Shown here: positions 19,214 through 41,729 of the stretch, in pieces | Layout: each line of letters opens with the position of its first letter | How positions within the stretch are numbered: position 1 is the stretch's first letter | Source: Alphaproteobacteria bacterium | Lineage (GTDB): Bacteria; Pseudomonadota; Alphaproteobacteria; UBA8366; GCA-2717185 | NCBI GenBank assembly: GCA_021774385.1 | Contig: JAJFJC010000002.1 | Location: forward strand, 1-52,147 | Direction: 5' to 3' | Length of the DNA stretch: 52,147 nt | Notes under the pieces: model-generated | Database searches by the model: none | What the model was told of the DNA's origin: nothing | The model's input: only the letters and a program-made list of their open reading frames with translations | Program-made: the position numbers and the translations under genes

Positions 19214-19316
19214 GGCACCCGTAGTTTTATCCGATTCGCGCCATCCGAATATCATATTTTTCCATCTTGGGTCATCGAACCTTTTTTTATTCACTTGAAA
19301 GGCCTATATTTCATTT

Positions 19317-19620
19317 GTCGGGAGACCGACTATGGCGTTACAGGGCCTTATGGAATAAGCGTTGCGGACCCGGGGGCGGTACCCGGCGCCTCCACCAAAT
19401 TCCGGAATTCTTCGGATGGTGTCATGGGGGCGAAATAGGATCGACGCGCGTGGTAAAGATTTGGTTTGCGCCCGGCATGGTACCGCCGTTATCGGGCCGA
19501 TTCGCTAATTGCGAACGATAACTTTGCGGGCGAAGCCCGTCTCGCTGCTTAGTCTGACTAAGTAAGCGCGGCCCGGGGGGCGCCGGGCAACAGAAGCCCC
19601 CCACTAAGTTGTTCGGCACG
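19317..19620 (+). ncRNA. ssrA: tmRNA, circularly permuted two-piece alphaproteobacterial form; outer ends approximate
   Basis: The acceptor piece ends CCGGG-GGCGGTA-CCCGG-CGCCTCC-ACCA at 19397. After an intervening segment (19398-19425) the coding piece starts GGGGGCGAAATAGGATCGAC at 19426 with a G3:U70 pair. The tag frame at 19511-19552 encodes ANDNFAGEARLAA*. Confidence 0.95.
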
Positions 19621-19657
19621 GGTTGTGTCGAAAGCCAGTTCGCATAGCAGAGGGATC

Positions 19658-20176
19658 ATGACGGAAGACATGATGCGATACGACCTTATGGTCGAAGGTG
19701 CGTTGCGTGCCGTCGTGCGAGAAACGATGGAGCGAATTGCCAGGGAAGGGTTGCCCGGCGAACATCACCTTTACATTACATTCCGCACGCACGAGACCGA
19801 TGTACAAATCCCGGAATACCTAACCGAACGGTACCCGGACGAAATGACTATCGTGCTTCAGCACCAATACGAAAAATTGGACGTTGGTGAAGACGGGTTT
19901 TCCGTTGCACTGAATTTCAACGATATACAGGAGCTTCTGAAGATTCCATTTGGGGCCATTTCCGCCTTCGCCGATCCATCGGCTAATTTTGGTCTTCAGT
20001 TCAAATTCGATGAAGCGGAAGAATCGACACCCGGCCAATTCGTTACGCCCGATTCCCAGGCTTCCGTTGAAGGGCAAAACGATTCCAATCCGGAACCGAC
20101 TACGGAATCCGTCGAGGCACCGAAAAAACCGGACGGCAACGTCGTAACGCTTGATACGTTCCGAAAAAATAAATAA
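19658..20176 (+). CDS. sspB: ClpXP adaptor SspB (alphaproteobacterial type)
   Basis: [35 protein letters not shown] and C-terminal [10 protein letters not shown]; directly follows ssrA. Confidence 0.92.
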
Positions 20177-21994: not shown

Positions 21995-23146
21995 TTATAG
22001 GTTCAACACATCGTCGTGCGTGCTGGCGGCGATAGCCATAACCTCATCGATTAAGTCTGGCGAAATGGCAAGTTCCTCGAGAGTTGCCTTCAGATGTCCA
22101 GCGACAGCGGCAAAGTGCGCCTCGCCCAGACCCTTTTCCTCGACAAGCGACTTGTGGGATTCGCGCAAGGAACGACCGGTATAGGCTTGGGGACCGCCAA
22201 AGGCGCCGGTCAGGAATATTCGTTGCATGAAGGCTTGGCGATCCATGTCGATGCCTTCGAAAAACGGTTTTAGCGTCGCGTCTCCCATGACCTTCGAATA
22301 GAAAGTATCGACGGTCGCTTCCACGGCATCGTCACCGCCAATCCGCTCGAAAAGCGTACCACCGGAAGACGGCGGCGCGCTGGGAATCGCTTCTGGCTGT
22401 ATTCTTTCCGTCTTTTCTGGCGGCGACGTTTCTGTCTTTGTTTCGGGAAATTTGACCACATTCTTGGTCGCTGGTGTCGTCGACGCCGGCGTAGGTTTCA
22501 CGATGCTTCGCTCGGCGACCGCTGCCCCTTCTGCCTGGTCATCGGCAGTTTCGGCATCCGCGGTTGGTTCAGGCGTAATCAATTTGGCCTTTTTCTTGTC
22601 CGTATCGGTCGCCGCGGGAACGCGCCGTTTCAGAACAACCGGCGGCGTTTTCATCAGAATCTCGGTGTCGAGCACACGTTCTATATCCAGCACGACCAAA
22701 AGATCGTCCGGCAAACGGAACACGCCCGTACTCAAGTGCCGTAACCTCTCGTCAAGTGTCGCCGGTGGTTTTTCAAAATCACGGCGCGGCAAATCCCGGA
22801 CATCGCCGATGGAATCGACCAGCAAGGTATAAAGGTCGCCGTGATACTCCACGGTAATCCCCATGCACCGCTCGTTTTCCCGTGCTTTGTCGATTCCAAG
22901 ACAGCGCCGCAAATTGATTACCGTAACGATCCGGCCTCTTAAATTCATCACACCGGCGATCGCGGAGGGAGCCAGCGGAACTGGTGTAATCAAGCGCGAT
23001 TCGACTATATCCTGTACCTGAAGAATTGGCACACCGAACATTTGGTTCTCGACCACCATCGTAACAAGTTGTTCCTTGTCGATGGCAATCTGGTCGAAAT
23101 CAACTGCGGCTTGATCCGTACTATCGACGATAGCAAGTTCACTCAT
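21995..23146 (-). CDS. CheW domain fused to a group I truncated haemoglobin
   Basis: N-terminal CheW (TPVP.AP..IAGVMNLRGRIVTVI, LLVDSI.DV), a ~100-aa P/T/A/E/K linker, and C-terminal trHb (LFERIGG, FY, FF, GGP..Y.GR.L..H). The ATG at 23146 has a GAGGAG RBS. Confidence 0.88.
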   Translation of the reverse strand: MSELAIVDSTDQAAVDFDQIAIDKEQLVTMVVENQMFGVPILQVQDIVESRLITPVPLAPSAIAGVMNLRGRIVTVINLRRCLGIDKARENERCMGITVEYHGDLYTLLVDSIGDVRDLPRRDFEKPPATLDERLRHLSTGVFRLPDDLLVVLDIERVLDTEILMKTPPVVLKRRVPAATDTDKKKAKLITPEPTADAETADDQAEGAAVAERSIVKPTPASTTPATKNVVKFPETKTETSPPEKTERIQPEAIPSAPPSSGGTLFERIGGDDAVEATVDTFYSKVMGDATLKPFFEGIDMDRQAFMQRIFLTGAFGGPQAYTGRSLRESHKSLVEEKGLGEAHFAAVAGHLKATLEELAISPDLIDEVMAIAASTHDDVLNL

Positions 23147-23235
23147 AAGGCACTCCTCGCATTTCCGATTGCTTCGCCTCGCCGAAATGGACGGAGGATC
23201 AGCAGTTATCGAGGAGGAACGATAATGATATTCCG

Positions 23236-23251
23236 TTAACGGAGCCTTTAC
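23236..23251. promoter_or_regulatory. Putative CtrA box upstream of cheW-globin
   Basis: TTAA-CGGAGCC-TTTAC, one mismatch to TTAA-N7-TTAAC, about 90 bp upstream of the start. Confidence 0.5.
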
Positions 23252-23273
23252 GGCCGTGAAATTCTGTTGTGGA

Positions 23274-24113
23274 TTAACCTTTGGGAACCTCGATCGGCAT
23301 CTCGTCCCGATTTCCCCATTCGTTCCATGAACCAAGATAGTTTCGGACGCGCGGGTAATCGAGCAGGCGCATAGCCAAGTAGGCATGGGCGGATCGATAC
23401 CCTGTTTGACAAAGCGCGATGATTTCCTTGTCGGCGGAAATACCGTTTTCCGCGAATAACGTGCGCAATTCATTTCCCGGTTTCATCGTGCCATCGGGCC
23501 GCAAATGGTTCACCCATTCTAAATGTACGGAACCGGGAACAGTGCCACCCTTGGCCGCGCGGCGATCCTCGCCGGTCCATTCTAACTTTCCACGGGTATC
23601 CAGAATAACGCAGTCCAGCGCGTTGATTCCCGCGCGTACATCATGGTGCGTGGCGAGACGGCCGCGATCCATTTGATATTTAAATACCGATGCTGTCGGC
23701 ACGGTCGCCTCACGCGTAACAGATAACCCGGCGGCTTCCCAGCCCGAATACCCGCCATCGAGAACATGAACATCCTTATGCCCCAGATACTCCAAAAACC
23801 ACAAACCGCGCGCGGCGGTCATTCCGGTGATTTCACCGCAAAAAACAATCGTGTCATCGAATGCGACTCCGCGACGGGCCAACAGGAATGCCCACATCCG
23901 GGTGAAGGAAAGGAGCGGCGCGTCATCGGTATCGTCGCAGTTCAGGGCATAAATATCGAAATGCCGTGCACCGGGTATATGACCCATAGCAAATCGTTCA
24001 CCGGGGCGCACATCGATGATGCGCAATGACGGGTCGTTCAGCCGCGCTTGCAAATCTTCCCGTGTCCAGAGCAAATCTGGATTTTCGTACCCTGCGGTTT
24101 CCTTTGTCGACAT
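23274..24113 (-). CDS. Tandem-domain rhodanese/sulfurtransferase (SseA-like)
   Basis: GHIPGA, VLDGG, active loop CQTGYR and YLGSWNEW. The ATG at 24113 has an AAGGA RBS. Confidence 0.9.
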   Translation of the reverse strand: MSTKETAGYENPDLLWTREDLQARLNDPSLRIIDVRPGERFAMGHIPGARHFDIYALNCDDTDDAPLLSFTRMWAFLLARRGVAFDDTIVFCGEITGMTAARGLWFLEYLGHKDVHVLDGGYSGWEAAGLSVTREATVPTASVFKYQMDRGRLATHHDVRAGINALDCVILDTRGKLEWTGEDRRAAKGGTVPGSVHLEWVNHLRPDGTMKPGNELRTLFAENGISADKEIIALCQTGYRSAHAYLAMRLLDYPRVRNYLGSWNEWGNRDEMPIEVPKG

Positions 24114-25123: not shown

Positions 25124-25735
25124 CTACGGTTTTCGCATCCGCTGTTTTTCGTCGATTTCCGGCACACGCATGAGCCGCTTTTCCGGCGGCTTTTTCAGTT
25201 GCTGCTGCAAATAGGCGGCCCGTTTGCGGACAGAGGAAGGATTTGGGATACCGTATAGTACTTTATGGATCATTCCCGGCTCGTCTACCGCCCCTTCATC
25301 TGTTCGCAGCGCTGCGACGTAGTCGGCAAACGCTTTGTCATATTTGCCGTTGCGATCATGCACGATTCCGCGATTTGCGTAAGCCGCCGCCAAAACGCCT
25401 CGACCCGTATTGTCGTCGGGTGTCAGCGTTCGGTTTAAAAAATCAATCAGGTAATTCAGTTCCGCTGCTGCATCGGCATCTTGTTCACTTTGAATAAAGA
25501 CCAACGCTCTGCCCATTAGTGCACCACGATGGTCGGGCTCTTCGGCTAATGCCTTGGCGAAATAATCGAGGGCCAAATCATGCTGGCCATCTTCGAATCG
25601 CTGCACACCGAGCTCCGTATTAAGGTCCCCTGGTGCGCGCGCGGTAAAGGATTCATAGGCCTGTGTTCCCATCACCACGACCACGATGAGCGCGATCATA
25701 AGCAAAATAAATCGACGTAGGACGGCCGCGGTCAC
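25124..25735 (-). CDS. Membrane-anchored TPR protein
   Basis: N-terminal TM and TPR-like repeats (ALDYFAKALAEEPDH; AYANRGIVHDRNGKYDKAFADY); 4-bp overlap with the upstream gene. Confidence 0.8.
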   Translation of the reverse strand: MTAAVLRRFILLMIALIVVVVMGTQAYESFTARAPGDLNTELGVQRFEDGQHDLALDYFAKALAEEPDHRGALMGRALVFIQSEQDADAAAELNYLIDFLNRTLTPDDNTGRGVLAAAYANRGIVHDRNGKYDKAFADYVAALRTDEGAVDEPGMIHKVLYGIPNPSSVRKRAAYLQQQLKKPPEKRLMRVPEIDEKQRMRKP

Positions 25736-25971
25736 GACGGCACCTTGAACAAGGTTGCCGTATAGAGAACCGAAAATACAAGACAGAGCAACGCCGCGGT
25801 GACGCCAGCCCGGTTGCGCAGGCGTTGACGCTCCGCATCATCCGTTTTGGTCCCTTTCTCGGCGCGCCGGACCATCAAAATCCAAATTAAGCGGCGTACC
25901 GGGAAAAACAGGACAAGCGCCAAAAAAGCCGCCCAAAAATATTGATAATCGGCGTTAAAGAGAGTTGCCAT
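25732..25971 (-). CDS. Small two-TM membrane protein
   Basis: 79 aa with two hydrophobic helices around a basic loop; translationally coupled to the TPR gene. Confidence 0.7.
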   Translation of the reverse strand: MATLFNADYQYFWAAFLALVLFFPVRRLIWILMVRRAEKGTKTDDAERQRLRNRAGVTAALLCLVFSVLYTATLFKVPS

Positions 25972-26090: not shown

Positions 26091-28064
26091 TTAATCGGCG
26101 GCGCCCGTGATTGCTTCGTCCCCAATATCCTCGACCAAGGCCTCGACCTCGGTATCGGGAACCGTCGACATTTCCATTTTGTAGGCAAGGAACCACATCA
26201 TGAAAACACCCAGCAGCCAGAACAGTATCTGCCATGCCCAAATCGATGGAATTCCAAAAGTCCAACCTTCGACGCCAGCATTCGGCGCGCCGAAGATATC
26301 GTTGCCAATCACGGCGCCCGGGCCGATGCCAAAGAACATCCATGCCAGTGTGATAATCCAAGCAATAGGCACGAGTCCCTTTTTCTCCGGTGGCAGACTG
26401 GCGTGCTGGCGCAGGAAACTGTGGTACTTCATCCTGTGCTCGCGTTCCGCGGAGTTCTGCGTCATCGCCGATACGGGCAAACAGACGAGTAGGTTAAAGA
26501 ACATACCCCAGCCCGCGCTGTGGATGGTCCACGGCCAGCGACCCCAAGGCAGTTCCACGCCAACGGAACCCGCAATCGATGCGCCGAATTTTTCGGTGAA
26601 AATCACGGCAATCAACCCCACTGCGAGGCCTAGTGTTGCGCCTTGACGTGTAATCCAAGGGATCCAGGTAACCGCCGCCAAGGATGGCCACATTTGGAAC
26701 CCGAAGGCCACCGCGAGGCCGCCAAGCAGAACCAACGCGTCACGGCTATAAGTCGCGACAAGCAGAGCCGCAAAGACAATGAATGCGACACCGATACGAC
26801 CGAAAAGCTTCTGCGTCCCATGATCCGCAGTCGGATTAAGATATCGCTTGTACAAATCCCGCGTCAGCATGGCACCCGCGGTCGACATATAGGCCGCACC
26901 GGTCGACTGCATTGCCGCTAGCGCACAAACCGCCAACAAGCCAACGAGCCACGGCGCCGAGTCTCCAAGCGTATTGAAGTAGTGCGGCACCAGTCCGCCC
27001 TGCTTGTTCGCCGTGAGATCGGGCAGAACCGTAGCCAGGGCTATTCCCGCATCCGTCACCGCCTGATTGGCGCCCAGAAGATGACCGCCCATACCTTGAA
27101 AGGCCGTGAAGAAAAACAGGATCAGCCCAATGCAGAATGACGACGCGATAACCTGTTGCGGCGCGAACGGCGAGGGATCCTTATTCGCAAAGGACCACAT
27201 CGAAAAGGCCGGCGCGGACTGAATCCCCATCAAGGCGAACATGTAGGTCAGACACATGATTCCCGTCCACAAACCGCCAACCGGCGTCTCAACGCCAAGA
27301 CCGGCCGTGAACTGGATTACGCCGGGAATGGCGAAGTAGGCGTTATAGTCGCCCCCGCCAAATCCTTTGGTCGTACCCCACTTTCCAATGTCGGACGCCG
27401 CAAGCTTGGCAAATCCCGCGTTCAAGGAGTCCCAGCCACCAGCCGCGTTTAACGCGATTATCCCCGTGATAATGATACCGAGCGCGAGTAGGATACATTG
27501 CAGCGTATCCACATAGGCCACGGCGCGGAGGCCGCCCGAAGCCACATAAATAAACACCACCAGCGACAGCACCCACATGCCCGTGTTGACCGCGAGGAAG
27601 CCATCCGTCAGGACGTTGAACAGGAAACCCGACGCCCCTAACTGGACCCCCAGATAAGGAATCGAGAACAACAACGCGACAAGCACGGTCAGAATTCGAA
27701 TCGCATCACCCTGGAAATAATCCGAGAGCATTTCGCCCGGTGTCACATAGCCGAACCGTTTGCCGAGCATCCATTGCCGTTTTAGAAACAGCACCCCGGT
27801 GAATGGTATCGTTATCGTGTAAAACGATGCATAGGCGTACTGGAATCCATCCCGGTAAACCAATCCTGGATGGCCCATGAACGTCCAGCCGGAAAACGAC
27901 GTTGCCGTCGCGGCGAGAATGAAAACGATCATTGATAGCCGTCGGCCGGCGATAAAATAGTCCGACGCTGTCTTTGCGGTCATCGCACCGCGAATACCCC
28001 AGTAAATGCAGTATGCCCAATAGAGCGCGACGAACGCGAAAAGCCACATCACTTTTGCAGACAA
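26091..28064 (-). CDS. Sodium:solute symporter (SSS family), 657 aa
   Basis: DYFIAGR, SFSGWTFMG, GGLRAVAYVD and LAAMQST (Na2 site region); extra C-terminal TM pair; TTG start with GGAGG RBS. Confidence 0.92.
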   Translation of the reverse strand: MSAKVMWLFAFVALYWAYCIYWGIRGAMTAKTASDYFIAGRRLSMIVFILAATATSFSGWTFMGHPGLVYRDGFQYAYASFYTITIPFTGVLFLKRQWMLGKRFGYVTPGEMLSDYFQGDAIRILTVLVALLFSIPYLGVQLGASGFLFNVLTDGFLAVNTGMWVLSLVVFIYVASGGLRAVAYVDTLQCILLALGIIITGIIALNAAGGWDSLNAGFAKLAASDIGKWGTTKGFGGGDYNAYFAIPGVIQFTAGLGVETPVGGLWTGIMCLTYMFALMGIQSAPAFSMWSFANKDPSPFAPQQVIASSFCIGLILFFFTAFQGMGGHLLGANQAVTDAGIALATVLPDLTANKQGGLVPHYFNTLGDSAPWLVGLLAVCALAAMQSTGAAYMSTAGAMLTRDLYKRYLNPTADHGTQKLFGRIGVAFIVFAALLVATYSRDALVLLGGLAVAFGFQMWPSLAAVTWIPWITRQGATLGLAVGLIAVIFTEKFGASIAGSVGVELPWGRWPWTIHSAGWGMFFNLLVCLPVSAMTQNSAEREHRMKYHSFLRQHASLPPEKKGLVPIAWIITLAWMFFGIGPGAVIGNDIFGAPNAGVEGWTFGIPSIWAWQILFWLLGVFMMWFLAYKMEMSTVPDTEVEALVEDIGDEAITGAAD

Positions 28065-28422
28065 GGCGAGTTCCTCCCATTTGACGGCGGTATCGGCGTC
28101 TCAATGCGTCCAAGAAGCCGGTTGCCGCTCCTACGCAACAAGCCCTTTAACATCAATCGGCAGCCGTCTCTTGCACATCATACTGCGGCCTTATTACGCC
28201 GAGCGAAGCAAAGAACTCTAATCTCCCAATCTCAGTGGTTATCAAATATTTGTAAAATTTGCAAGCAAAACGGAGACTCTTATGGACGGTTCGAAATTAC
28301 CCTCTAATAAGCACAAAGTAATACCATCGAAAAGATGATAAAATTTTTATTAATCAAACATATGGAGCAAATTATCTAAGGGCGTGTACTGCGGTTATTA
28401 GACCTTTTTATCTATTATTTTT

Positions 28423-28501
28423 TGCATTGCAGCATTAATATTTTATTCTTTCCGCACCAATACACCGCAAAATACTGCGAATCAGTCCATGCGACGCACA
28501 T
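28423..28501. promoter_or_regulatory. Two PhaR-like boxes in the divergent SSS/DUF294 promoter
   Basis: TGCATTGCAGCA (28423-28434) and TGCGACGCACAT (28490-28501), compared with the rhizobial PhaR consensus as I recall it (TGCRNYGCASMA). Confidence 0.45.
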
Positions 28502-28564
28502 TGCAAAGTAAGCAGGTTCGCGGTTGAATGGTCCTGTTGGGTCAAGCAAGGACAGGCGCCAACG

Positions 28565-30028
28565 ATGAGCAACAGGCAAACAGCAATTTTTACACGGCGC
28601 GTACGTGATCATATGCGCCCCGCACCGGTTGTCGTGAGCCCTGAAACATCGACCCGCCAGGTTATTTCCCTCATGTCGGACCGCGGCGCCACGGCGGCGT
28701 TGATCGTGGGCGAAAACAATCGCGTTCTGGGAATTCTGACGGAGCAAGACGTCGTTCGGCGCATTACGTTTCGTGCTTCGGACAACACACCGATACAAGA
28801 CCTTATGACACGACCGGTGCGTACCGTCGTCGATGACGATTTTTTATATTATGCAATCTCCCTTATGCGGCGCGGCGGCTTGCGGCACCTGCCGGTCGTC
28901 GACCCCACCGGCGCCGTCGCGGGTATGGTTCATCTGGACGATGCGGTCGGTGTCGCTTCGGAAAGCCGCCTTGGTCAGATCGATCGGCTAACCGGCGAAA
29001 CCACGCTTGAAGGATTGCAGGACGTAAAAAAGGCGCAAATCGACCTGGCCGACGAACTTTTTGCCGAGAATCTTCCCGTCCCCGAAATTCAATCGGTTCT
29101 AACGCACCTCAACAATGATTTGTATCGCCGTGTCCTGGAAGGAAATCTGCGAGAAATGGCGGAATCTGGATGGGGCGATCCACCAGTCTCGTTCTGTGTC
29201 ATCGTCATGGGGTCGGGAGGACGCGGCGAGAGCTATCTGTACCCTGACCAGGACAACGGGTTCATCCTCGACGACTATCCCGATGCGCGGCATGGCGACA
29301 TCGACCGTTATTTCGTGGATTTGGCGGAACGCATGACGCGAGATCTCGACCGGATTGGTATTCCGCTTTGTAAAGGTTACGTCATGGCGACCAACCCGGT
29401 ATGGCGGAAGACCGTGACACAATGGCGCGAACAGATATCTCTTTGGTGTCGGCGACAGAGTCTTGTCGCCTTGCGGTTTTCCGATATCTTCTTCGATTTC
29501 AAAGCCGTCTTTGGCGAAATCGACCTCGCCGGCAGGCTAAGACAAGACATCACTCAAATCGTCAAAGCAAACCCGTCATTCCTGCGCGCCATGTACGAAG
29601 ACGATGTCGAACACGGTGTTGCCTTGGGTTGGTTTGGCCGCTTCGTAACGGAAAAAGACGATCCGGACCATCTCGGCGCGATCAACCTGAAACACACGGG
29701 CACGTTGCCCCTGGTCGAGTCGATCCGGTTGCTGGCACTGCGCGAAGGCATATCGAGAACCGCGACACTCGAACGCCTTTCGGTGTTGCGCGAGCGGGAA
29801 CTTCTCCAATCGGATGACGCGGATTACCTTATCGGCGCTTATCACCACATTACGCGGTTGCTGCTGCGCCAACAGATCAAGGATTTCAAAACCGGCGGAA
29901 AAGTAAGCAACTATGTTCATCCGGATACTTTAACCAAGCGGGAACAGGACATTCTGATCGACTCGTTCAAAGCAATTAAACGGCTGCGCGACCGTGTGCG
30001 GAGCGACTTTACCGGCGACGTTTTCTGA
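28565..30028 (+). CDS. CBS pair + DUF294 nucleotidyltransferase + DUF294_C protein
   Basis: Two CBS repeats (GILTEQD, RHLPVVD), NTase motif GSGGRGE...DQDN, C.GYVMATNP.W and INLKHTG. Confidence 0.9.
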   Translation: MSNRQTAIFTRRVRDHMRPAPVVVSPETSTRQVISLMSDRGATAALIVGENNRVLGILTEQDVVRRITFRASDNTPIQDLMTRPVRTVVDDDFLYYAISLMRRGGLRHLPVVDPTGAVAGMVHLDDAVGVASESRLGQIDRLTGETTLEGLQDVKKAQIDLADELFAENLPVPEIQSVLTHLNNDLYRRVLEGNLREMAESGWGDPPVSFCVIVMGSGGRGESYLYPDQDNGFILDDYPDARHGDIDRYFVDLAERMTRDLDRIGIPLCKGYVMATNPVWRKTVTQWREQISLWCRRQSLVALRFSDIFFDFKAVFGEIDLAGRLRQDITQIVKANPSFLRAMYEDDVEHGVALGWFGRFVTEKDDPDHLGAINLKHTGTLPLVESIRLLALREGISRTATLERLSVLRERELLQSDDADYLIGAYHHITRLLLRQQIKDFKTGGKVSNYVHPDTLTKREQDILIDSFKAIKRLRDRVRSDFTGDVF

Positions 30029-30039
30029 ACCGTACCGCG

Positions 30040-31401
30040 ATGCCAACTCAAACCTCACTTTTCATTTCCTTCATTCTTGCCGTATTTGGGGTGACGCTTT
30101 TTTGTGGCGTTATCTTGATTCAGTCTTCCTACGCAGGTCTAGGTGACGCGGTTCCCTGGTTGGGCGGGTTTGCTGCTCTCCTTGCGTCGGGTGCGATCTA
30201 TACAACCGCTCATATCCTTTACCGTCATTTCAAGGCGCTCCGCCGATTGCGCGATGGCGTCGTAATGCTGCTTGCTGAAAGCACAACAAAACTTCCTCCA
30301 GACGACGATTTCCCTCGTGAGATTACGCGATTGCGTGATGCTATAGGCACTCTGGTAGCCCGCCGGTTTGAACAAGGTAAGGCGCCGGATCGACGCCTTA
30401 CCGCCGTGTTGAGTTCAATTGCCGAGGCAATCGTCGTCACGACGACGTCAGGTCAGGTAAGCCTTGTAAACAACGCCGCGCGCACGTTGCTCGGGGCCAA
30501 GCGCGTCGCGGTTGGGACAAGCTTATATGCCGCCATGAGCCGCGGTGACGTTGAAACAGCGGTGGCGAGCTCCCGCGATAAAGGCCGGCCGGTGGAGGCC
30601 CGGCTGCGGACCGTCGATGGCGAAATTCTCGTCGCAAAGGTCGCCGATCTCGGCACATTCGGCGGCACTGTCATATCCTTCCCAATTGCGTCTCTCGAAA
30701 GCCACGCCGCGCTTGAGCACGACCTCGCCCTGCACGACACACCGCCGACGCCGACGCCAATCACGAAGAATACGCTGCTCACGGATTTGCCGGCCTTGGT
30801 CTTTGATTGCGAAACCACCGGTCTCGACGTCAAACGAGATGTGATTGTTGCGCTCGGCGGCGTGCGGATGCATGGAACGCAACTCTACAGAAGCGAAACG
30901 ATCGATCGGCTCGTCGACCCCGGACGCCCCATACCACCGCAATCTACCCGCATTCACGGCATCACGGACCGCATGGTGTCCGACGCTGGTGCGTTCGATA
31001 CGCACTGGCCGTCGCTTCACGCCATAATGCAGGGAACCGTGCTTGTCGGTCACAATATTGCTTTCGATATCGCGCATCTTCGCGCGGCTGCCAGCCAATT
31101 TGGGATCAACTGGACGCCACCGCCCACGTTAGACACCTTGTTACTCACCGCAGCGCTAGAGCCCTCCGCACCAGGCTACGATCTTGAAGCCATCGCCGCG
31201 CGCTTTGGCGTCAGCGTCCATGGCCGGCATACCGCGCTGGGGGACAGTTTGGTAACGGCCGAAATTTACGCCCGCCTCGTACCGCTACTCGTCGAACGGA
31301 ATGTCAGAACCCTAGGCGAGGCGATCTCCTTTGGGCTTCGCGCCAAAGCTTTTGTTAAGCGACAAAAAGAATCTGGTTGGTTTGAGTCACCGGTGGATTG
31401 A
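30040..31401 (+). CDS. Membrane-anchored protein with PAS-like and DEDDh 3'-5' exonuclease (epsilon-like) domains
   Basis: Two N-terminal TMs, PAS-like EAIVV....GQVSLVN.AA..LLG, ExoI DCETTG, ExoII GHNIAFD and ExoIII HTALGD. Confidence 0.87.
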   Translation: MPTQTSLFISFILAVFGVTLFCGVILIQSSYAGLGDAVPWLGGFAALLASGAIYTTAHILYRHFKALRRLRDGVVMLLAESTTKLPPDDDFPREITRLRDAIGTLVARRFEQGKAPDRRLTAVLSSIAEAIVVTTTSGQVSLVNNAARTLLGAKRVAVGTSLYAAMSRGDVETAVASSRDKGRPVEARLRTVDGEILVAKVADLGTFGGTVISFPIASLESHAALEHDLALHDTPPTPTPITKNTLLTDLPALVFDCETTGLDVKRDVIVALGGVRMHGTQLYRSETIDRLVDPGRPIPPQSTRIHGITDRMVSDAGAFDTHWPSLHAIMQGTVLVGHNIAFDIAHLRAAASQFGINWTPPPTLDTLLLTAALEPSAPGYDLEAIAARFGVSVHGRHTALGDSLVTAEIYARLVPLLVERNVRTLGEAISFGLRAKAFVKRQKESGWFESPVD

Positions 31402-31464: not shown

Positions 31465-33144
31465 ATGGCACGTTATCAATACGTCTACACCATGCAATCC
31501 CTCAGTAAGACCTACCCCGGCGGGCGAGAGGTTCTAAAGGACGTCACATTGGCGTTCCTGCCGGGCGCGAAGATCGGTGTCCTGGGATATAACGGCGCCG
31601 GCAAATCGACATTGCTGCGCATCATGGCCGGGCAGGAGACGGAATACACCGGCGAGGCCTGGGCCGCGGAGGGCGCTACCGTCGGCTATCTGCCGCAGGA
31701 ACCCGTGCTGGATAGCGATAAAACGGTGTACGAGAACGTACTGGAAGGCCTTGCGGAACAAAAAGCGGTCGTCGACCGTTTCGAGGAAGTCAGCATGAAG
31801 CTTGGCGAGGTCACCGATCCGGATGAAATGACCGCGTTGATCGAAGAGCAAGCGGAGCTTCAGGAAAAAATCGACGCCGCCGACGCCTGGGACCTATCCC
31901 GCACGGTGGAGATTGCGATGGATGCGCTGCGCTGCCCCGATGGCGAAAGCGAAGTTGCCCAATTATCAGGCGGAGAGCGGCGCCGGGTCGCCTTGTGCCA
32001 ACTACTCCTTCAGAAACCATCCCTGTTACTACTCGATGAACCGACGAACCATCTCGACGCCGAATCGGTTGCCTGGCTTGAGCGGCACCTTCGGGAATAT
32101 GAAGGTACGGTTGTTATGGTCACGCACGACCGGTATTTCCTCGACAATGTTACGGGATGGATACTCGAACTCGACCGGGGTCGCGGTATTCCCTACGAAG
32201 GGAACTATTCCGCCTGGGTGGGGCAAAAACAAAATCGCCTAGAACATGAAGAGCGGGTCGATCAGGCACGCCTTCGAACACTTGCCAATGAGCAGGAGTG
32301 GATCGCGGCGAGTCCACGGGCGCGTCAGGCAAAGTCCAAGGCGCGAATCACGGCATATGAAAAGATGTTGGCCGAAAGCCGAGATCGGGGTCCGGGCAAT
32401 GCGCAGATCGTCATTCCGTCAGGTCCGCGGCTCGGCGATGTGGTAATTACGGCGGAATCCTTGCGCAAAGGGTTCGGCAACGTACTCCTGATCGAAGATC
32501 TTGATTTTATCATCCCGCCCGGGGCGATTGTCGGGATCATTGGGCCCAACGGCGCGGGGAAAACGACACTGTTTCGCATGATTACGGGAAACGAAACGCC
32601 GGATTCCGGCATGTTGCGTATTGGCGATACGGTTGAGCTCGGCTATGTCGATCAATCGCGCGATACCCTAGCCGACGACAAAACGGTGTGGGAGGAAATC
32701 AGCCAAGGCGAGGAGGAGATCGTGCTTGGTGATCGCAAGACGCAGAGTCGGGCCTATGTGGGGTCCTTTAATTTTCGCGGCCCGGATCAGCAAAAGAAAG
32801 TTGGGCAACTTTCCGGCGGAGAGCGAAATCGCGTGCACCTAGCGAAAATGCTGCGCACCGCCGCGAACGTTCTGTTGCTGGATGAGCCGACAAATGATCT
32901 GGATGTCGATACATTGCGCGCTTTGGAAACCGCGCTCGCGGATTTTGCCGGTTGCGCGGTGATCATCAGTCATGACCGTTGGTTCCTCGATCGCATTTGC
33001 ACGCATATGCTGGCTTTCGAGGGAGATAGCCAAGTGGTTTGGTTCGAAGGCAATTATCAGGATTACGAAGCCGACAGACGTCAGCGCCTCGGCGCGATTG
33101 CAGATCAACCACATCGGATCAAATACAAGCCCCTTACCAGATAG
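31465..33144 (+). CDS. ettA: Energy-dependent translational throttle protein (ABC-F)
   Basis: Two ABC domains (GYNGAGKST, LSGGERRR; GPNGAGKTT, LSGGERNR), linker PRARQAKSKAR and C-terminal PHRIKYK.L. Confidence 0.95.
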   Translation: MARYQYVYTMQSLSKTYPGGREVLKDVTLAFLPGAKIGVLGYNGAGKSTLLRIMAGQETEYTGEAWAAEGATVGYLPQEPVLDSDKTVYENVLEGLAEQKAVVDRFEEVSMKLGEVTDPDEMTALIEEQAELQEKIDAADAWDLSRTVEIAMDALRCPDGESEVAQLSGGERRRVALCQLLLQKPSLLLLDEPTNHLDAESVAWLERHLREYEGTVVMVTHDRYFLDNVTGWILELDRGRGIPYEGNYSAWVGQKQNRLEHEERVDQARLRTLANEQEWIAASPRARQAKSKARITAYEKMLAESRDRGPGNAQIVIPSGPRLGDVVITAESLRKGFGNVLLIEDLDFIIPPGAIVGIIGPNGAGKTTLFRMITGNETPDSGMLRIGDTVELGYVDQSRDTLADDKTVWEEISQGEEEIVLGDRKTQSRAYVGSFNFRGPDQQKKVGQLSGGERNRVHLAKMLRTAANVLLLDEPTNDLDVDTLRALETALADFAGCAVIISHDRWFLDRICTHMLAFEGDSQVVWFEGNYQDYEADRRQRLGAIADQPHRIKYKPLTR

Positions 33145-36316: not shown

Positions 36317-37309
36317 TTGTTCGTTGATGAGAAAGCGTTAATTTTGAATAAACTTTTGCAGGGATTGCGAGCGGTGGCGGAACCGACACGGTTGCGGTTA
36401 CTCGCGTTATGCGCGCATGCGGAGCTAACCGTTAGCGAGCTTACGCAGATTCTCGGCCAGAGCCAACCGCGCGTATCGCGCCACTTGAAGCTTCTCGTGG
36501 AAGCTGGACTGCTTGATCGTTTTCGTGAGGGCACATGGGCATTTTATAGAATGTCCGAACAACAGGCCTGCGCAACACTCGGTCGCACGGTTGTCGATCT
36601 AATTCCGGACGACGACCCGACACTCACGCTCGATCTCGAGCGCCTCGAAACAGTGAAACAGGCAAGAGCGCGGCAAGCGGGAAACTATTTCCGAACAAAC
36701 GCGGCGCATTGGGATCAGATTCGCTCGCTCCATGTCGATGAAGCGGAAATCGAACGAAGGATGCTCGGATTACTCGGTCCGGATACGGTCGGCGACCTGC
36801 TCGATATCGGCACTGGGACGGGCCGCATGCTTGTGGTCTACGGCGCGACGGCGTCGCGTGCCGTTGGGATCGATCTGTCGCACGAAATGCTCTCTGTCGC
36901 GCGCGTAAATCTGGAAAAAGCGGGTTTGCGCAATTGCCAGGTTCGACTTGGCGATATGTATCAGCTTCCAGTGCCCAGCGAATCCTTCGACTCGATTACA
37001 ATTCACCAAGTCCTGCATTACGCCGATTCGCCGGCGGACGTTATCGCCGAAGCAGCGCGCGCGTTACGTCCAGGAGGTCGACTGATCGTGGCGGATTTCA
37101 CGCCGCACCAAGAGGAAGCGTTGCGCGACGAGCACGCTCATCGCCGATTGGGTTTTTCCAACGAAGAACTTGCCGGCTGGCTGCGGCGCGCCAACCTTAT
37201 TCCCGGCGAGCCGGTATATCTGCATGGCGAACCACTGACCGTTGGCTTATGGCCTGCGCACCGGCCAGCAAATGATGAAGCAGCACTCGAACGGCGCGCA
37301 ACGGCTTAA
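36317..37309 (+). CDS. sahR: SahR: ArsR HTH + SAM-methyltransferase-fold regulator
   Basis: ArsR HTH (EPTRLRLL...SQPRVSRHLK) fused to a LDIGTGTG SAM-binding domain; heads metF-metH. The start may be the TTG at 36344. Confidence 0.85.
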   Translation: MFVDEKALILNKLLQGLRAVAEPTRLRLLALCAHAELTVSELTQILGQSQPRVSRHLKLLVEAGLLDRFREGTWAFYRMSEQQACATLGRTVVDLIPDDDPTLTLDLERLETVKQARARQAGNYFRTNAAHWDQIRSLHVDEAEIERRMLGLLGPDTVGDLLDIGTGTGRMLVVYGATASRAVGIDLSHEMLSVARVNLEKAGLRNCQVRLGDMYQLPVPSESFDSITIHQVLHYADSPADVIAEAARALRPGGRLIVADFTPHQEEALRDEHAHRRLGFSNEELAGWLRRANLIPGEPVYLHGEPLTVGLWPAHRPANDEAALERRATA

Positions 37310-37370
37310 GAAAGTCTAAAATTTTTTGAGCGATATACCGGTGCATCCGCGCCAAGCGAAGGAAAACATT

Positions 37371-38234
37371 GTGAGCAACGCCCCTTTAGTCAGTTTTGAA
37401 TTTTTTCCGCCACATGATGACGCGGGAGAGGCCCGATTATGGAACGTCATGGCGCGTCTAGCGCCGTTGGACCCGTCTTTTGTATCGGTAACTTACGGCG
37501 CGGGCGGAACAACTCGAAAAAGAACGGACCGCGTCGTGAGAAGAATCCATGACGAAACCAGCGTTCCGGTCGCGGCGCACCTAACCTGTGTCGGCGCCAG
37601 CCGCGATGAGGTAAACGAGATAGCGTCCGGATGGTGGGATGCCGGCATCCGGCAGATCGTTGCTTTACGCGGCGATATGCCGGATGCCGAAACACCGTAC
37701 GCACCGCATATCAACGGTTACAACAATGCCGCGGACCTGGTTGCTGGATTGCGAGGTCTCAACGACTTCAATATTTCCGTCGCCGCCTATCCAGAAACCC
37801 ACCCCGACTCGCCAAGCTTGGTGGCCGATCTCGATAACCTAAAACGGAAAGTCGATGCGGGGGCAACACAGGCCATTACGCAGTATTTCTTCAACACAGA
37901 AGATTTTCTCAAGTTTCGCGACAGGATCGACGCCGCGGGAATTGATATTCCAATAATTCCCGGAATTCTGCCCGTAACGAACTTCGCCAAGGTCATAGAG
38001 TTCAGCGCGCGATGTGGCGCATCGGTACCGGATTGGATGGCACGGCTGTTCGATGGTCTCGACGACGATCCGGAGACACGCAAACTTGTCGCCGCTTCCG
38101 TCGCCGTCGATCAGTGCCGCGCGTTGCAAGCGGAAGGTATTCAGCAGTTTCATTTCTATACGCTCAACCGGGCCGAACTGACCTATGCAATCTGTTGGCG
38201 GCTCGGGTGTCGGCCGCTTGTTGCGGCAGCCTGA
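37371..38234 (+). CDS. metF: 5,10-methylenetetrahydrofolate reductase
   Basis: SFEFFPP, SVTYGAGG, AHLTC, ALRGD, AYPE.HP and HFYTLN. GTG start at 37371 with an AAGGA RBS. Confidence 0.96.
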   Translation: MSNAPLVSFEFFPPHDDAGEARLWNVMARLAPLDPSFVSVTYGAGGTTRKRTDRVVRRIHDETSVPVAAHLTCVGASRDEVNEIASGWWDAGIRQIVALRGDMPDAETPYAPHINGYNNAADLVAGLRGLNDFNISVAAYPETHPDSPSLVADLDNLKRKVDAGATQAITQYFFNTEDFLKFRDRIDAAGIDIPIIPGILPVTNFAKVIEFSARCGASVPDWMARLFDGLDDDPETRKLVAASVAVDQCRALQAEGIQQFHFYTLNRAELTYAICWRLGCRPLVAAA

Positions 38235-38237
38235 TCG

Positions 38238-41200
38238 ATGAGTCGCTTTCTTGATGCCTTGCAGGAGCGCGTCTTGCTCTGCGACGGCGGCATGGGCAGT
38301 CGCGTGCAAGCAATCGATCTCGATATCGAAACCGATTATCGTGGCGCGGAAAATTGCACGGAAGTGTTGAACCTGTCGCGGCCCGATATCGTCCTTGAAA
38401 TTCACAAAGGATATATTGCCGCTGGGGCGGACATCGTTCAGACCAACAGCTTTGGCGGATCACCCATCACATTGGGCGAGTTTGATCTCGCCGATCAAGC
38501 GCACGACATCAACCGTATCGCCGGCGAGTTGGCGCGAACCGCCATCGACAGTATGGCCAAGGACGGCCGGGAACGTTTTGTCTTGGGGTCCATTGGCCCC
38601 GGGACACGGCTCCCGAGCTTGGGACATATCGACTATGACAGTCTTGAAGAAGCATATCATGTCCAGTCGGTTGGGCTGATAGCCGGCGGCGTCGACGCCA
38701 TTCTGATCGAAACCTGTCAAGATACCCTGCAAATAAAAGCGGCGGTCAACGGAGCAAAAAGAGCAAGGTTCGACGCGACAATCGAACTACCGATTATCGT
38801 GCAAGTCACGGTGGAGACCACTGGAACCTTGCTCGTAGGCGCGGATATCGCCGCCGCCGCCACCGTCGTTCATGCGCTCGGCGTTGACATGCTTGGGCTC
38901 AATTGTGCGACCGGCCCACAAGAAATGGCGGAACACGTCAAATGGCTCGGCGAAAACTGGCCTAATCCCATCTCGCTTCAGCCAAATGCGGGATTACCCG
39001 AATTGGTGGATGGGGCACCGTATTATCCCTTGAGTGGGCCAGAGATGGCGGACTGGCTGCGGCGATTCGTTGGCGAGGACGGCGTCAATCTCATCGGCGG
39101 CTGTTGTGGCACCGACATCCCACATATCCAAGCGGTGGACAAAATGCTTCGTGCCCTGGCGGAGGATGGCTATCGACCGGTTCCAAAAAAGCGGACGGTG
39201 CGGTGGACCCCGGCTATCGCGTCCGCCTATGGCGCCATTCCCTATCGTCAGGAAAACGCCTTTCTCTCAATCGGCGAGCGCTGCAACGCAAACGGCAGCA
39301 AGAAATTCCGCGAGTTGCAGGAAGCAGAAGATTGGGATGCCTGCGTTGAAATGGGCCGCGATCAGGTCCGCGAGGGCAGCCACGCGATTGATGTGTGTAC
39401 GGCTTTCGTCGGTCGCGACGAAATATTCGAAATGGGTGAAGTCGTCACACGGATGCGAGGCGCCGTTAACGCGCCTCTGGTAATTGATTCGACCGAACTT
39501 CCCGTACTCGAATCCGCAATGCGGCTTTATGGCGGCAAGCCGTTGATCAATTCGATCAACTTTGAGGATGGCGAAGAAGCGGCGGACAAACGCCTGCAGC
39601 TTGCACGAACCTTTGGCGCCGGCGTCATCGCGCTAACAATCGACGAAGACGGCATGGCAAAAACGGCGGAAGATAAGTTGCGTATTGCAAAGCGGCTTTA
39701 TGAATTTGCCGTGGAGCAGCATGGTCTGCACCCCTCCGACTTGCTGTTCGATCCGCTAACATTCACGATCTGCACGGGAAACGCCGACGATCGATTACTC
39801 GGCGTCCATACACTCGATGCGATCGAGTTGATCGCCAAGGAGATGCCCGAATGTCAGATTATCCTCGGATTGTCGAACATTTCCTTTGGCTTGAATGCCG
39901 CGGCACGACATGTTTTGAACTCGGTCTTCCTTGATCATGCGGTGCGGCGCGGCATGACGGGCGCGATCCTGCATGTCAGCAAAATCATGCCGCTGCATGC
40001 AATCCCCGAACAGGAAGTTAAAATCGCGGAAGACCTGATTTTCGACAGGCGCGGGGACGAATATGATCCACTTACAGAGTTTTTGGGTCTATTCGAAGGG
40101 CGATCCGCGAAAAAAGATGTGGAAAAATCACGCCCTGAGAAGGTCGAGGAACGGCTGTCGCAACGAATTATCGATGGAGACAAGCAGGGTCTCGAAGAAG
40201 ACCTCGACGAAGCCATGGCCGCGCATCCACCTCTCGATATCATAAACACATTCTTACTTGACGGCATGAAAGTCGTCGGAGAACTGTTTGGCGCCGGGAA
40301 AATGCAATTGCCCTTCGTCCTGAAATCCGCCGAAACCATGAAAGCCGCCGTCGCGTTTCTCGAACCGCACATGGAACGTCTAGAAGGACAGCACAAAGGC
40401 ACCATTGTGTTGGCCACGGTTAAGGGTGACGTTCACGATATTGGTAAGAATCTCGTTGACATTATTCTCACCAACAATGGCTACAATGTTGTCAACCTTG
40501 GCATCAAACAGCCGATAAATGACATTCTGTCGGCTGTCGACGAACATGCCGCGCAAGCTATCGGTCTTTCCGGCCTGCTTGTTAAATCGACCGTCGTCAT
40601 GAGAGAAAACTTAAACGAAATGAGCCGCGCGGGACTTAAAATACCGGTAATTCTCGGCGGCGCCGCACTGACACGGGCATACGTGGAAGAAGATTGCGTA
40701 CAGGCGTACGCGTGCGGCCGGGTTGCGTACGCCCGCGATGCCTTTGACGGCCTTGGGCTCATGGATAAAGTCGTTAACGACAAATTTGACGGTCATTTGA
40801 AAACGGTTTCGAATAAGCGGGCGAATCGGCCGACGAACAAAAAGAAGGCGCTCGGGCGGGCAAAAACGACCGTGGCGCCTAACGCCAATCTGTCAACCGA
40901 GAAAAGGCGCTCTTTCCAATCGGCGGAAGCACCGCCGGCACCGCCATTTTGGGGTCCCCGAATAATTGCCCGGGCCCCGGTCCGCGCACTGTTGCCGTAT
41001 TTGAACGAACGCATGCTCTATCAATTTCAATGGGGCTTTCGCAAGGATGGCCGAAGCCTCGATGAATACATGGAATGGTCAAAAGGCGAGTTAAGACCAA
41101 TTCTGAAACGTATGGTCGATATTTCGATTCAGCAGGACATTCTAATTCCGCAGGCCGCATACGGTTATTGGAAGGCAGCCGGGGATGCCGACGATCTCGT

Positions 41201-41729
41201 CCTTTATGATGAAGACGGCAAGACTGAAGTCGCGCGGTTTCCGTTACCTCGTCAAGCCGACGGTGACGGGAAATGCATCGCCGATTACGTCCTTGATGCG
41301 TCTCTTGGCCCCGACCGGCGCGACGTCATCGCACTTCAAGTCGTGACCATGGGCCAACATGCCTCGGACACCGCGCGCGAATGGTTTGGCGAAGATCGTT
41401 ATCAGGACTACCTCTATCTGCATGGTCTTGGTGTCGAAATGGCCGAAGCGATGGCCGAATACACCCATAAGCGTATTCGCGCCGAACTAGGCTTTACCGC
41501 CGAGGAATCCCGCGACCTGGAAAAACTCTTGCAGCAGGAATACCGCGGTAGCCGCTATTCGTTCGGCTACCCCGCATGCCCCAAGGTGGAAGACCAGTCG
41601 ATGATCTTGGATTTGCTCGGCGCCGATCGAATCGGGATCGAACTATCCGATGAATTCCAACTTCACCCCGAGCAGTCGACCAGCGCTATTGTAATCCTGC
41701 ATAAAGACGCAAAGTATTTTTCCGTTTAG
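38238..41729 (+). CDS. metH: Cobalamin-dependent methionine synthase
   Basis: Hcy domain Zn ligands LNC and GGCC, pterin domain IGER.N, B12 motif GDVHDIGKN and activation domain RYSFGYPACP. Confidence 0.96.
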   Translation: MSRFLDALQERVLLCDGGMGSRVQAIDLDIETDYRGAENCTEVLNLSRPDIVLEIHKGYIAAGADIVQTNSFGGSPITLGEFDLADQAHDINRIAGELARTAIDSMAKDGRERFVLGSIGPGTRLPSLGHIDYDSLEEAYHVQSVGLIAGGVDAILIETCQDTLQIKAAVNGAKRARFDATIELPIIVQVTVETTGTLLVGADIAAAATVVHALGVDMLGLNCATGPQEMAEHVKWLGENWPNPISLQPNAGLPELVDGAPYYPLSGPEMADWLRRFVGEDGVNLIGGCCGTDIPHIQAVDKMLRALAEDGYRPVPKKRTVRWTPAIASAYGAIPYRQENAFLSIGERCNANGSKKFRELQEAEDWDACVEMGRDQVREGSHAIDVCTAFVGRDEIFEMGEVVTRMRGAVNAPLVIDSTELPVLESAMRLYGGKPLINSINFEDGEEAADKRLQLARTFGAGVIALTIDEDGMAKTAEDKLRIAKRLYEFAVEQHGLHPSDLLFDPLTFTICTGNADDRLLGVHTLDAIELIAKEMPECQIILGLSNISFGLNAAARHVLNSVFLDHAVRRGMTGAILHVSKIMPLHAIPEQEVKIAEDLIFDRRGDEYDPLTEFLGLFEGRSAKKDVEKSRPEKVEERLSQRIIDGDKQGLEEDLDEAMAAHPPLDIINTFLLDGMKVVGELFGAGKMQLPFVLKSAETMKAAVAFLEPHMERLEGQHKGTIVLATVKGDVHDIGKNLVDIILTNNGYNVVNLGIKQPINDILSAVDEHAAQAIGLSGLLVKSTVVMRENLNEMSRAGLKIPVILGGAALTRAYVEEDCVQAYACGRVAYARDAFDGLGLMDKVVNDKFDGHLKTVSNKRANRPTNKKKALGRAKTTVAPNANLSTEKRRSFQSAEAPPAPPFWGPRIIARAPVRALLPYLNERMLYQFQWGFRKDGRSLDEYMEWSKGELRPILKRMVDISIQQDILIPQAAYGYWKAAGDADDLVLYDEDGKTEVARFPLPRQADGDGKCIADYVLDASLGPDRRDVIALQVVTMGQHASDTAREWFGEDRYQDYLYLHGLGVEMAEAMAEYTHKRIRAELGFTAEESRDLEKLLQQEYRGSRYSFGYPACPKVEDQSMILDLLGADRIGIELSDEFQLHPEQSTSAIVILHKDAKYFSV

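Follow-up and report, generated by a model that had tools for sequence, protein, structure and literature searches.

A gene pair that couples a nucleotidyltransferase (NTase) of the DUF294 family to a DEDDh exonuclease is already in print from studies of carboxylate use in Pseudomonas, where P. putida pp_0354/pp_0353 and its counterparts PA3233/PA3232 of P. aeruginosa and Pflu5625 of P. fluorescens represent the closest described systems. Here we analyse a version of this module in an Alphaproteobacteria bacterium (assembly GCA_021774385.1, contig JAJFJC010000002.1, positions 1-52,147; the window, below, is this whole stretch of 52,147 nucleotides, and its genome is G000 in our order-level set), in which the two enzyme genes face a transporter of the solute:sodium symporter (SSS) family. 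What is new at this locus is the SSS subfamily, with its own small transmembrane (TM) and TPR companions, and the setting in which one transporter, one NTase and one exonuclease stand against each other in a single genome.

The module is common in Proteobacteria and beyond, and it is among the most strongly induced genes for the use of acetate, propionate and pyruvate in Pseudomonas. The accessible portions of the published reports describe Pflu5625, a cAMP-CBS-NTase, as a member of the CrbS/R regulon and state that its mutant showed no phenotype (PMC5715377). The corresponding portions of the P. putida study have the pp_0354/pp_0353 operon bound by ErdR, growth on acetate unaffected by either deletion, and growth on pyruvate delayed by deletion of pp_0353 as well as of actP-I (PMC9927547); a pyruvate defect common to the pp_0353, yjcH and actP-I deletions emerges from that study together with a September 2026 preprint (PMC9927547; 10.64898/2026.09.07.749794). 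As far as the available text of the preprint goes, the operon is among the most MxtR/ErdR-dependent genes, either deletion lowers growth on propionate, and the function of the operon is called unclear, with a mention of protein modification "similar to reversible uridylation of PII" (10.64898/2026.09.07.749794). For P. aeruginosa, the part of the report at hand gives a rise of about 16-fold on propionate for PA3232-PA3235 (PMC9765439). The original prediction for the window held that the module has no known mechanism, and our literature searches, which left supplements aside, likewise found neither a mechanism for it nor a paper that pairs the terms DUF294 and exonuclease.

The Pseudomonas modules and the window share the essentials, namely, a CBS-DUF294 NTase with a DEDDh exonuclease after it and a link to SSS transporters. 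The pp_0354, PA3233 and Pflu5625 NTases, however, carry an N-terminal cNMP domain that the window NTase lacks, whereas the window exonuclease differs from the pp_0353 type by a membrane anchor and a PAS domain. Furthermore, the window transporter is neither ActP nor of the VC_2705 type and comes without DUF485 or DUF4212, and, in contrast to pp_0354/pp_0353, which are under CrbS/R (MxtR/ErdR) control, the window encodes no SLC5 sensor kinase, nor was one found in the genome by PF00474.

Pairing of the two enzymes and their link to SSS transporters

The comparison involves the following features of the window.

26091-28064, minus strand: SSS transporter, 657 aa (PF00474, E 3.6e-32)
28565-30028, plus strand: NTase with Pfam domains CBS-CBS-DUF294-DUF294_C, 487 aa
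29210-29254, plus strand: Pol-beta-type NTase catalytic motif, GSGGRGESYLYPDQD, with G216-S217...R220-x-E222...D228-Q229-D230
30040-31401, plus strand: membrane-anchored PAS-DEDDh exonuclease, 453 aa, separated from the NTase stop by an 11-bp gap (30029-30039)
30394-30633, plus strand: PAS-like sensor domain of the exonuclease, residues 119-198 (PF00989, E 2.9e-5, 24.5 bits against a cut-off of 22.6)
30796-31269, plus strand: DEDDh (RNase_T/epsilon-like) domain of the exonuclease, residues 253-410 (RNase_T, E 5.7e-34)

The open reading frames (ORFs) and their strands bear out the prediction of two genes 11 bp apart that are transcribed divergently from the symporter. The genome contains exactly one gene of each kind: a profile search of G000 yields the symporter as the sole match to PF00474 (SSF), the NTase is the only DUF294 protein, and there is one exonuclease of this clade.

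The data support the conclusion that the NTase and the exonuclease are a true functional pair, with near-obligate co-occurrence, that is tied to SSS transporters; the arrangement is far from chance. Among 91 genomes of the order, G000 included (DUF294 of any class at E <= 1e-20, clade exonuclease at E <= 1e-25), DUF294 is present in 41 and the clade exonuclease in 39; both enzymes are encoded in 39 genomes, the NTase alone in 2 (G062, and a fragment in G082), the exonuclease alone in 0 and neither in 50, counts that are descriptive only, as related genomes do not count as independent cases. Comparison of coordinates by hand places an SSF gene within 10 kb of the module, on one contig with it, in 35 of the 39 genomes that have both enzymes. 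Three of the exceptions (G008, G055 and G059) have the genes on separate contigs, and in the remaining one (G074), the DUF294 match begins at the edge of its contig and the SSF profile gives no more than a weak kinase-type match. The predicted recurrence of the pair beside SSS transporters is thus upheld. For the specific forms found in the window, close orthologues of the NTase (E <1e-130) are present in 19 genomes, the window-type SSS in 22 and both in 18; the single genome that has the NTase orthologue without the window-type SSS is 70% complete, and in one of the 4 with the converse pattern, a paralogous exonuclease-NTase pair lies at a distance of 3 kb from the SSS. High-scoring PutP-like SSF genes without the module occur in the same order.

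A query with the NTase across contigs from one genome per species recovered 80 loci at 44-75% identity, mostly from Rhodospirillales- and Kiloniellales-like metagenome-assembled genomes, along with some gammaproteobacterial ones. With the window-type SSS defined by more than 50% identity, it is present in 42 of these loci and the partner exonuclease in 50, with both in 31 and neither in 19; when the count is restricted to the 43 loci flanked on each side by 6 kb or more, the respective numbers are 27, 34, 23 and 5. The SSS is conserved at 58-96% across the loci, far above both enzymes.

In many relatives, the two enzymes are joined in a single ORF. Six of the ten paralogue loci scanned (L082, L083, L085, L089, L090 and L091) encode a fusion of the form RNase_T-CBS-CBS-DUF294-DUF294_C, 698-730 aa in length, in which the DUF294 part is about 30-35% identical to the window NTase. 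A query with one of these fusions returned 3704 proteins at E <= 1e-20, and all 120 best-listed clusters (53-100% identity) contain all four families; both sets of catalytic residues are invariant in an alignment of 62 fusions. These alphaproteobacterial proteins of about 710 aa, named [quoted passage not shown], share the domains, the catalytic residues and the SSS neighbour with the window pair; in the fusions, however, the exonuclease comes first, the protein is soluble, and the symporters are DUF4212/VC_2705-like, whereas in the window, the genes are separate, the NTase comes first, and the exonuclease has gained a TM segment and a PAS domain. A split, membrane-anchored form and a fused, soluble form are therefore both found within one bacterial order. 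Both the fusions and the unfused paralogues adjoin VC_2705-like SSF genes, often accompanied by DUF4212, and the window pair adjoins another subfamily, so within this order the enzyme pair has two or more SSS subfamilies as partners; ActP adds a further SSS partner, given that the available part of the P. aeruginosa report places actP in the PA3232-PA3235 cluster (PMC9765439).

The window symporter itself, judged by its sequence, belongs to an SSS subfamily that fits no curated model, the third subfamily served by the module. All its NCBIfam matches are below the cut-offs: 89.9 against 320.75 for VC_2705, 89.5 against 515.5 for PutP, 70.4 against 625 for MctP and 116.3 against 184 for the sss superfamily, with the PanF cut-off far out of reach as well. 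No genes for DUF485 (YjcH) or DUF4212 small subunits are found among the ORFs that flank the symporter, small ORFs included. The PDB sequence search yields only vSGLT, SMCT1 and SGLT1, at E 1e-8 or weaker, as candidates for a substrate name, and in the ESM Atlas the symporter falls into generic SSS clusters that carry no specific one. Given the sub-threshold NCBIfam scores, the lack of DUF485/DUF4212 and the generic relatives in the PDB and the ESM Atlas, the label "ActP-type", which the original prediction used for SSS neighbours of such pairs, is not right for this transporter, even though the SSS association itself stands. Orthologues with 79-96% identity are present in 22 of the 91 genomes of the order.

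The paralogue loci contain additional genes. A membrane protein of about 115 aa with a weak, sub-cut-off YGGT match (E 3.8e-5) follows the VC_2705-like symporter at L082:13314-13658, L085:4916-5314 and L086:6896-7237. A conserved soluble protein of about 215-255 aa that matches no Pfam family is encoded just upstream of the exonuclease-NTase fusion or pair (L082:10287-10985, L083:10295-10981, L090:7771-8538, L091:3455-4105, L088:2465-3109 and L086:9720-10409); this protein, which is without a counterpart in the window, may belong to the module as an extra component.

Architecture and affinities of the two enzymes

The Pfam scan and the motif in the NTase confirm the predicted CBS pair and DUF294 domain with an intact catalytic site. 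The CBS pair (E 5.2e-23, the first CBS at residues 13-67) is followed by DUF294 (PF03445, residues 160-298, E 2.5e-39) and DUF294_C (PF10335, residues 338-482, E 6.9e-43), and, again as predicted, the scan gives no match to cNMP_binding (PF00027). The cNMP domain is a variable feature of the module, not a bar to membership; the paralogue L087:7245-9077 does possess it. Both the Pol-beta motif G-[GS]-x(9-13)-D-x-[DE] and a helical C-terminal domain are present, and all 52 NTase orthologues aligned share G216, S217, R220, E222, D228, Q229, D230 and D311.

The PDB sequence search finds no relative of known structure for the NTase part, and the closer affinities come from an AF2 model (pLDDT 91.8, pTM 0.88). 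The best fold matches are both halves of GlnE, the N-terminal adenylyl-removing domain (1v4a, Z 26.3, root-mean-square deviation 3.4, 323 residues aligned) and the C-terminal adenylylating domain (3k7d_B, Z 25.6), and the DrrA AMPylation domain (6yx5_B, Z 25.2 over 303 residues); the remaining listed matches cover the CBS part only, at Z <= 18.3. The fold similarity is also seen by Foldseek, at E 1.3e-8. The model thus supports a GlnE/GlnD-like assignment of the NTase, as anticipated for DUF294 from the outset, with strong matches only to the protein-AMPylating GlnE and DrrA.

GlnE and GlnD resemble the window NTase in the combination of the NTase domain with a helical C-terminal domain and in the G-S...D-x-D motif, and the resemblance would extend to the joining of a writer and an eraser, each controlled by a sensor, in one system, if the window exonuclease has the eraser role that we propose below. 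The eraser is, however, a second NTase-fold domain in GlnE and an HD domain in GlnD, whereas the window NTase has a single NTase domain, no HD domain and a DEDDh partner; moreover, there is no PII-like or glutamine synthetase target, and the sequence identity between GlnE and the NTase is only 16-17%. DrrA/SidM of Legionella, a match from the fold search only, shares the GlnE-like NTase fold, but the window NTase has none of its GEF and P4M domains or its secretion context and resides in a chromosomal housekeeping setting in a free-living alphaproteobacterium.

In the exonuclease, all three Exo motifs are present, and D256, E258, D343, H397 and D402 show no variation across the 15 relatives of TM-PAS-exonuclease architecture. 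The predicted PAS and DEDDh domains and the first of the two predicted TM segments hold up: TM1 (residues 9-27) is strongly hydrophobic, with a Kyte-Doolittle value of 2.76. The second segment (residues ~38-58) is weak in this protein, at about 1.0 by hand calculation, and no second N-terminal 19-residue stretch reaches 1.6; in the 15-row alignment, however, it falls opposite a clear second TM segment (>=1.7) in each of the other 14 sequences. The partner exonucleases come in several builds, namely, the window form of about 450 aa with TM and PAS, forms of about 485-520 aa and about 700 aa, and short forms; among 30 of them from related loci, RNase_T is detected in all 30 and a PAS-family match in 12.

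The nearest solved sequences are the PolC exonuclease, Cas2-DEDDh and DnaQ. In the model of a fusion relative, the exonuclease domain matches the PolC exonuclease best (Z 23.1), followed by DnaQ domains, with epsilon at Z 21, and, at Z of about 18, by ERI, ExoX, Cap18, TREX and RNase T; several fusions also match the Rv2179c-like exoribonuclease model PF16473. The likeness to Pol III epsilon and PolC thus lies in Exo motifs I-III and, for the fused relative's domain, in a fold similarity of Z 21-23, whereas the window exonuclease differs from them in being membrane-anchored, PAS-linked and paired with an NTase, and in scoring 69.7 bits against a dnaQ_proteo cut-off of 222.7, all its other NCBIfam matches being sub-cut-off as well. 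The bona fide dnaQ is on another contig (G000:C254:20687-21352, 266.4 bits against the same cut-off), so a replicative proofreading role of the exonuclease, already considered unlikely in the original prediction, is indeed unlikely.

A putative write/erase switch and its rivals

Tentatively, and with confidence somewhat short of even, we favour, much as the original prediction did, a reading of the two enzymes as a sensor-gated nucleotidyl write/erase pair, one that would govern carboxylate uptake through the SSS transporter. In its favour are the pairing and fusion of the enzymes, the conservation of both active sites, the SSS neighbours, the GlnE/DrrA fold of the NTase, the separate sensor domains and the published propionate and pyruvate phenotypes. 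In this scheme, the NTase would move a nucleoside monophosphate (NMP) from NTP onto a hydroxyl acceptor, either singly or as a short NMP chain; the acceptor would most likely be a protein side chain, belonging to the transporter itself or to a protein by which it is controlled. The exonuclease would then hydrolyse the resulting phosphodiester and release 5'-NMP. Each enzyme would respond through a sensor domain of its own, the CBS pair on the NTase, a putative sensor of adenylate charge in the original prediction, and the PAS domain on the exonuclease; the membrane anchor would keep the eraser near the transporter; and the balance between writer and eraser would set the uptake of short-chain carboxylates, in the manner in which GlnD, with its NTase and HD domains, acts via GlnK on AmtB. 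Indeed, GlnD-GlnK-AmtB is a precedent for a switch of this kind that gates a transporter. A narrower and more doubtful version of the proposal makes the DEDDh exonuclease a protein de-nucleotidylylase that trims or removes (poly)NMP tags written by the CBS-gated, GlnE-like NTase on the SSS or on its small companion protein. The chemistry is plausible, given that hydrolysis of a Tyr-O-P-5'-nucleoside and of a 3'-O-P-5'-nucleoside linkage both give 5'-NMP; snake-venom phosphodiesterase, an exonuclease that releases 5'-NMP, de-adenylylates glutamine synthetase, and MntA poly-AMPylates HepT. Were the general scheme correct, it would add a regulatory layer for secondary transporters and a job for DnaQ-like exonucleases, both new; the de-nucleotidylylase version would amount to a new post-translational on/off switch and a new class of DEDDh substrates, in what is here a one-to-one-to-one system. 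Because transporter, writer and eraser are each single-copy in the genome, the search for the target is narrowed.

Several observations weigh against a switch of this kind. To our knowledge, no DEDDh enzyme removes a protein-linked nucleotide, and both the sequence and the fold of the exonuclease domain are those of an ordinary nucleic-acid exonuclease of the epsilon/PolC type. The analysis points to no acceptor for the NTase; the 15-row alignment of the exonuclease family contains no invariant Tyr; and the presence of the module beside several unrelated SSS subfamilies speaks against a single conserved docking surface on the transporter. The model of the fusion (mean pLDDT 84.3, pTM 0.62, with a disordered linker at 213-241) gives no sign of juxtaposed active sites. 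Neither an SSS nor an exonuclease is found near the DUF294 orthologue in 5 of the 43 full-flank loci, and the neighbours in these loci (L018, L025, L053, L062 and L080) share no common theme. Finally, the published deletions of module genes give only mild phenotypes in the accessible portions of the reports (PMC9927547, 10.64898/2026.09.07.749794).

The epsilon/PolC-type appearance of the exonuclease domain keeps oligonucleotide or RNA 3'-end substrates alive as rivals. Under one such scenario, which we regard as unlikely and yet worth serious attention, the product of the NTase is a free (oligo)nucleotide, linear or cyclic, the DEDDh enzyme degrades this signal, and a receptor tunes the transporter or the metabolism behind it. 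A normal phosphodiester-cleaving DEDDh domain, matched by PF16473 in several fusions, suits a second messenger, as do the separate sensor domains on both enzymes, to which some relatives add cNMP (L087) or kinase-type inputs; a sensor-GGDEF enzyme with a sensor-EAL enzyme, and Orn that clears pGpG, are ready analogies, and a diffusible signal would fit the different SSS subfamilies more easily. However, the strong structural matches of the NTase are only to the protein-modifying GlnE and DrrA, and among the fold matches listed there is no cGAS, OAS or CD-NTase chain, although unlisted families stay possible; no candidate receptor is conserved in the loci; and a fusion of synthase and hydrolase risks a futile cycle, notwithstanding the existence of GGDEF-EAL fusions. 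Less likely again is an RNA 3'-end pair, in which the NTase adds untemplated nucleotides, the DEDDh enzyme trims them, and an mRNA, small RNA or tRNA needed for carboxylate use is thereby controlled in its stability or activity. The Pol-beta superfamily includes RNA tailing enzymes, and the CCA-adding enzyme and RNase T, which act on tRNA, offer a tail-and-trim analogy. The nucleic-acid exonucleases nearest in fold to the fused relative's domain (PolC at Z 23.1, epsilon at Z 21, RNase T at Z 18) point in this direction, and so does a speculation by the P. putida authors, in the part of their paper available, that pp_0353 degrades mRNA (PMC9927547). The NTase fold, nevertheless, belongs with the GlnE/DrrA clade, including the C-terminal helical domain, with no CCA-adding enzyme or poly(A) polymerase among the listed matches; the Pfam scan detects no RNA-binding domain and Rfam no structured RNA at the locus; the symporter leader is kept only among close relatives; and a membrane anchor would be odd for RNA processing.

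Two further explanations have very little probability. That the enzymes are unrelated neighbours, the exonuclease serving DNA repair or proofreading and the NTase acting alone, might be suggested by the best sequence matches of the exonuclease domain, which are the exonuclease domains of PolC, DnaQ and DinG, but is highly improbable in view of the absence of any clade exonuclease without DUF294 (0 of 91 genomes), the one-ORF fusions in many relatives, the 266-bit dnaQ on another contig against 69.7 bits here, and the membrane anchor with its PAS domain. Scarcely credible is a role of the NTase and the nuclease, as effector and regulator, in anti-phage defence or in a toxin-antitoxin module: the DEDDh domain matches the PADLOC models for Cas-associated DEDDh (E 5.1e-35) and PDC-S48, and MNT-HEPN-type NTases do regulate toxins, but these PADLOC matches are generic and the NTase has none; the surroundings are housekeeping genes, with no mobile-element genes nearby, and the synteny with the transporter is stable across the order and beyond.

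The symporter, its control region and the surrounding genes

Short-chain monocarboxylates are the inferred substrate of the symporter. Two genes separate the orthologous SSS and DUF294 genes in sister loci, one for a ScfR/RamB-type short-chain acyl-CoA regulator (PF09856, E 1.8e-52) and one for an SLC5-type kinase, and these two are the only hint of a short-chain carboxylate cargo for the window-type SSS. At one such locus, the regulator (L008:1378-2982, plus strand) consists of HTH_3, Peptidase_M78 and ScfRs domains with a weak HisKA match, and a 950-aa SLC5-HisKA-HATPase sensor kinase (L008:4132-6981, plus strand) is encoded upstream of DUF294; the window has a counterpart of neither. The lack of a kinase in the window is matched by the single PF00474 hit in G000, although weak kinase-type matches may escape detection by this profile.

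Three further features adjoin the symporter gene.

25124-25735, minus strand: TPR protein, 203 aa (TPR_1, E 5.1e-11), with a single N-terminal TM segment at residues 4-22
25732-25971, minus strand: small two-TM protein, 79 aa, downstream of the symporter and overlapping the TPR gene by 4 bp
28065-28564: AT-rich divergent control region of 500 bp between the symporter and the NTase operon

The small protein, which matches no Pfam family above the cut-off, accompanies the symporter in 26 of the 80 loci, and the TPR protein does so in 27. Within the control region, an alignment of 6 loci including the window shows that blocks beside the symporter start are kept in genus-level relatives. The symporter leader (28065-28260, minus strand, about 190 nt) contains blocks kept in 5-6 of these loci, among them a GTTGC...GCAAC inverted repeat; the blocks were not seen in wider relatives, for which 39 upstream sequences were read by eye, unaligned, and Rfam detects no structured RNA in the leader or at the symporter, NTase and exonuclease genes. 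Sigma-54 and CbrB-type control left no trace here: the sigma-54 pattern TGGCAC-N(4-6)-TTGC does not occur in the window, and the window's 15 TGTTAC sites (10.2 expected), of the kind expected for CbrB-type control, all lie outside 28065-28564. An apparent -24/-12 element at L002 was likewise dismissed on hand reading, being absent from the window and from 3 of the 4 other aligned loci, of which L007 aligns poorly in this part.

Directly after the exonuclease, the gene for EttA, the ABC-F translational throttle, follows on the same strand (31465-33144, plus strand, 933.9 bits), as it does in 28 of the 80 related loci; its proximity probably reflects a conserved neighbourhood and not function. 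The remainder of the window consists of housekeeping genes, including uvrB, uvrC, molybdopterin genes (moaE), thyA/folA, tmRNA, fumarase and metF/metH. Among the other genes, a 492-aa protein (21995-23473, minus strand) combines a CheW-like domain (residues 135-269, E 5.1e-31) with a C-terminal bacterial-like (truncated) globin (residues 373-489, E 8.5e-17) and may provide haem-based gas or redox input to chemotaxis. The tmRNA is of the alphaproteobacterial two-piece type (19278-19605, plus strand; RF01849, 253.8 bits) and is directly followed by sspB (19625-20173, plus strand; PF04386, E 2.4e-42). An ArsR-type HTH fused to an S-adenosylmethionine-dependent methyltransferase domain (36317-37306, plus strand) is encoded directly upstream of metF (37326-38231) and metH (38238-41726).

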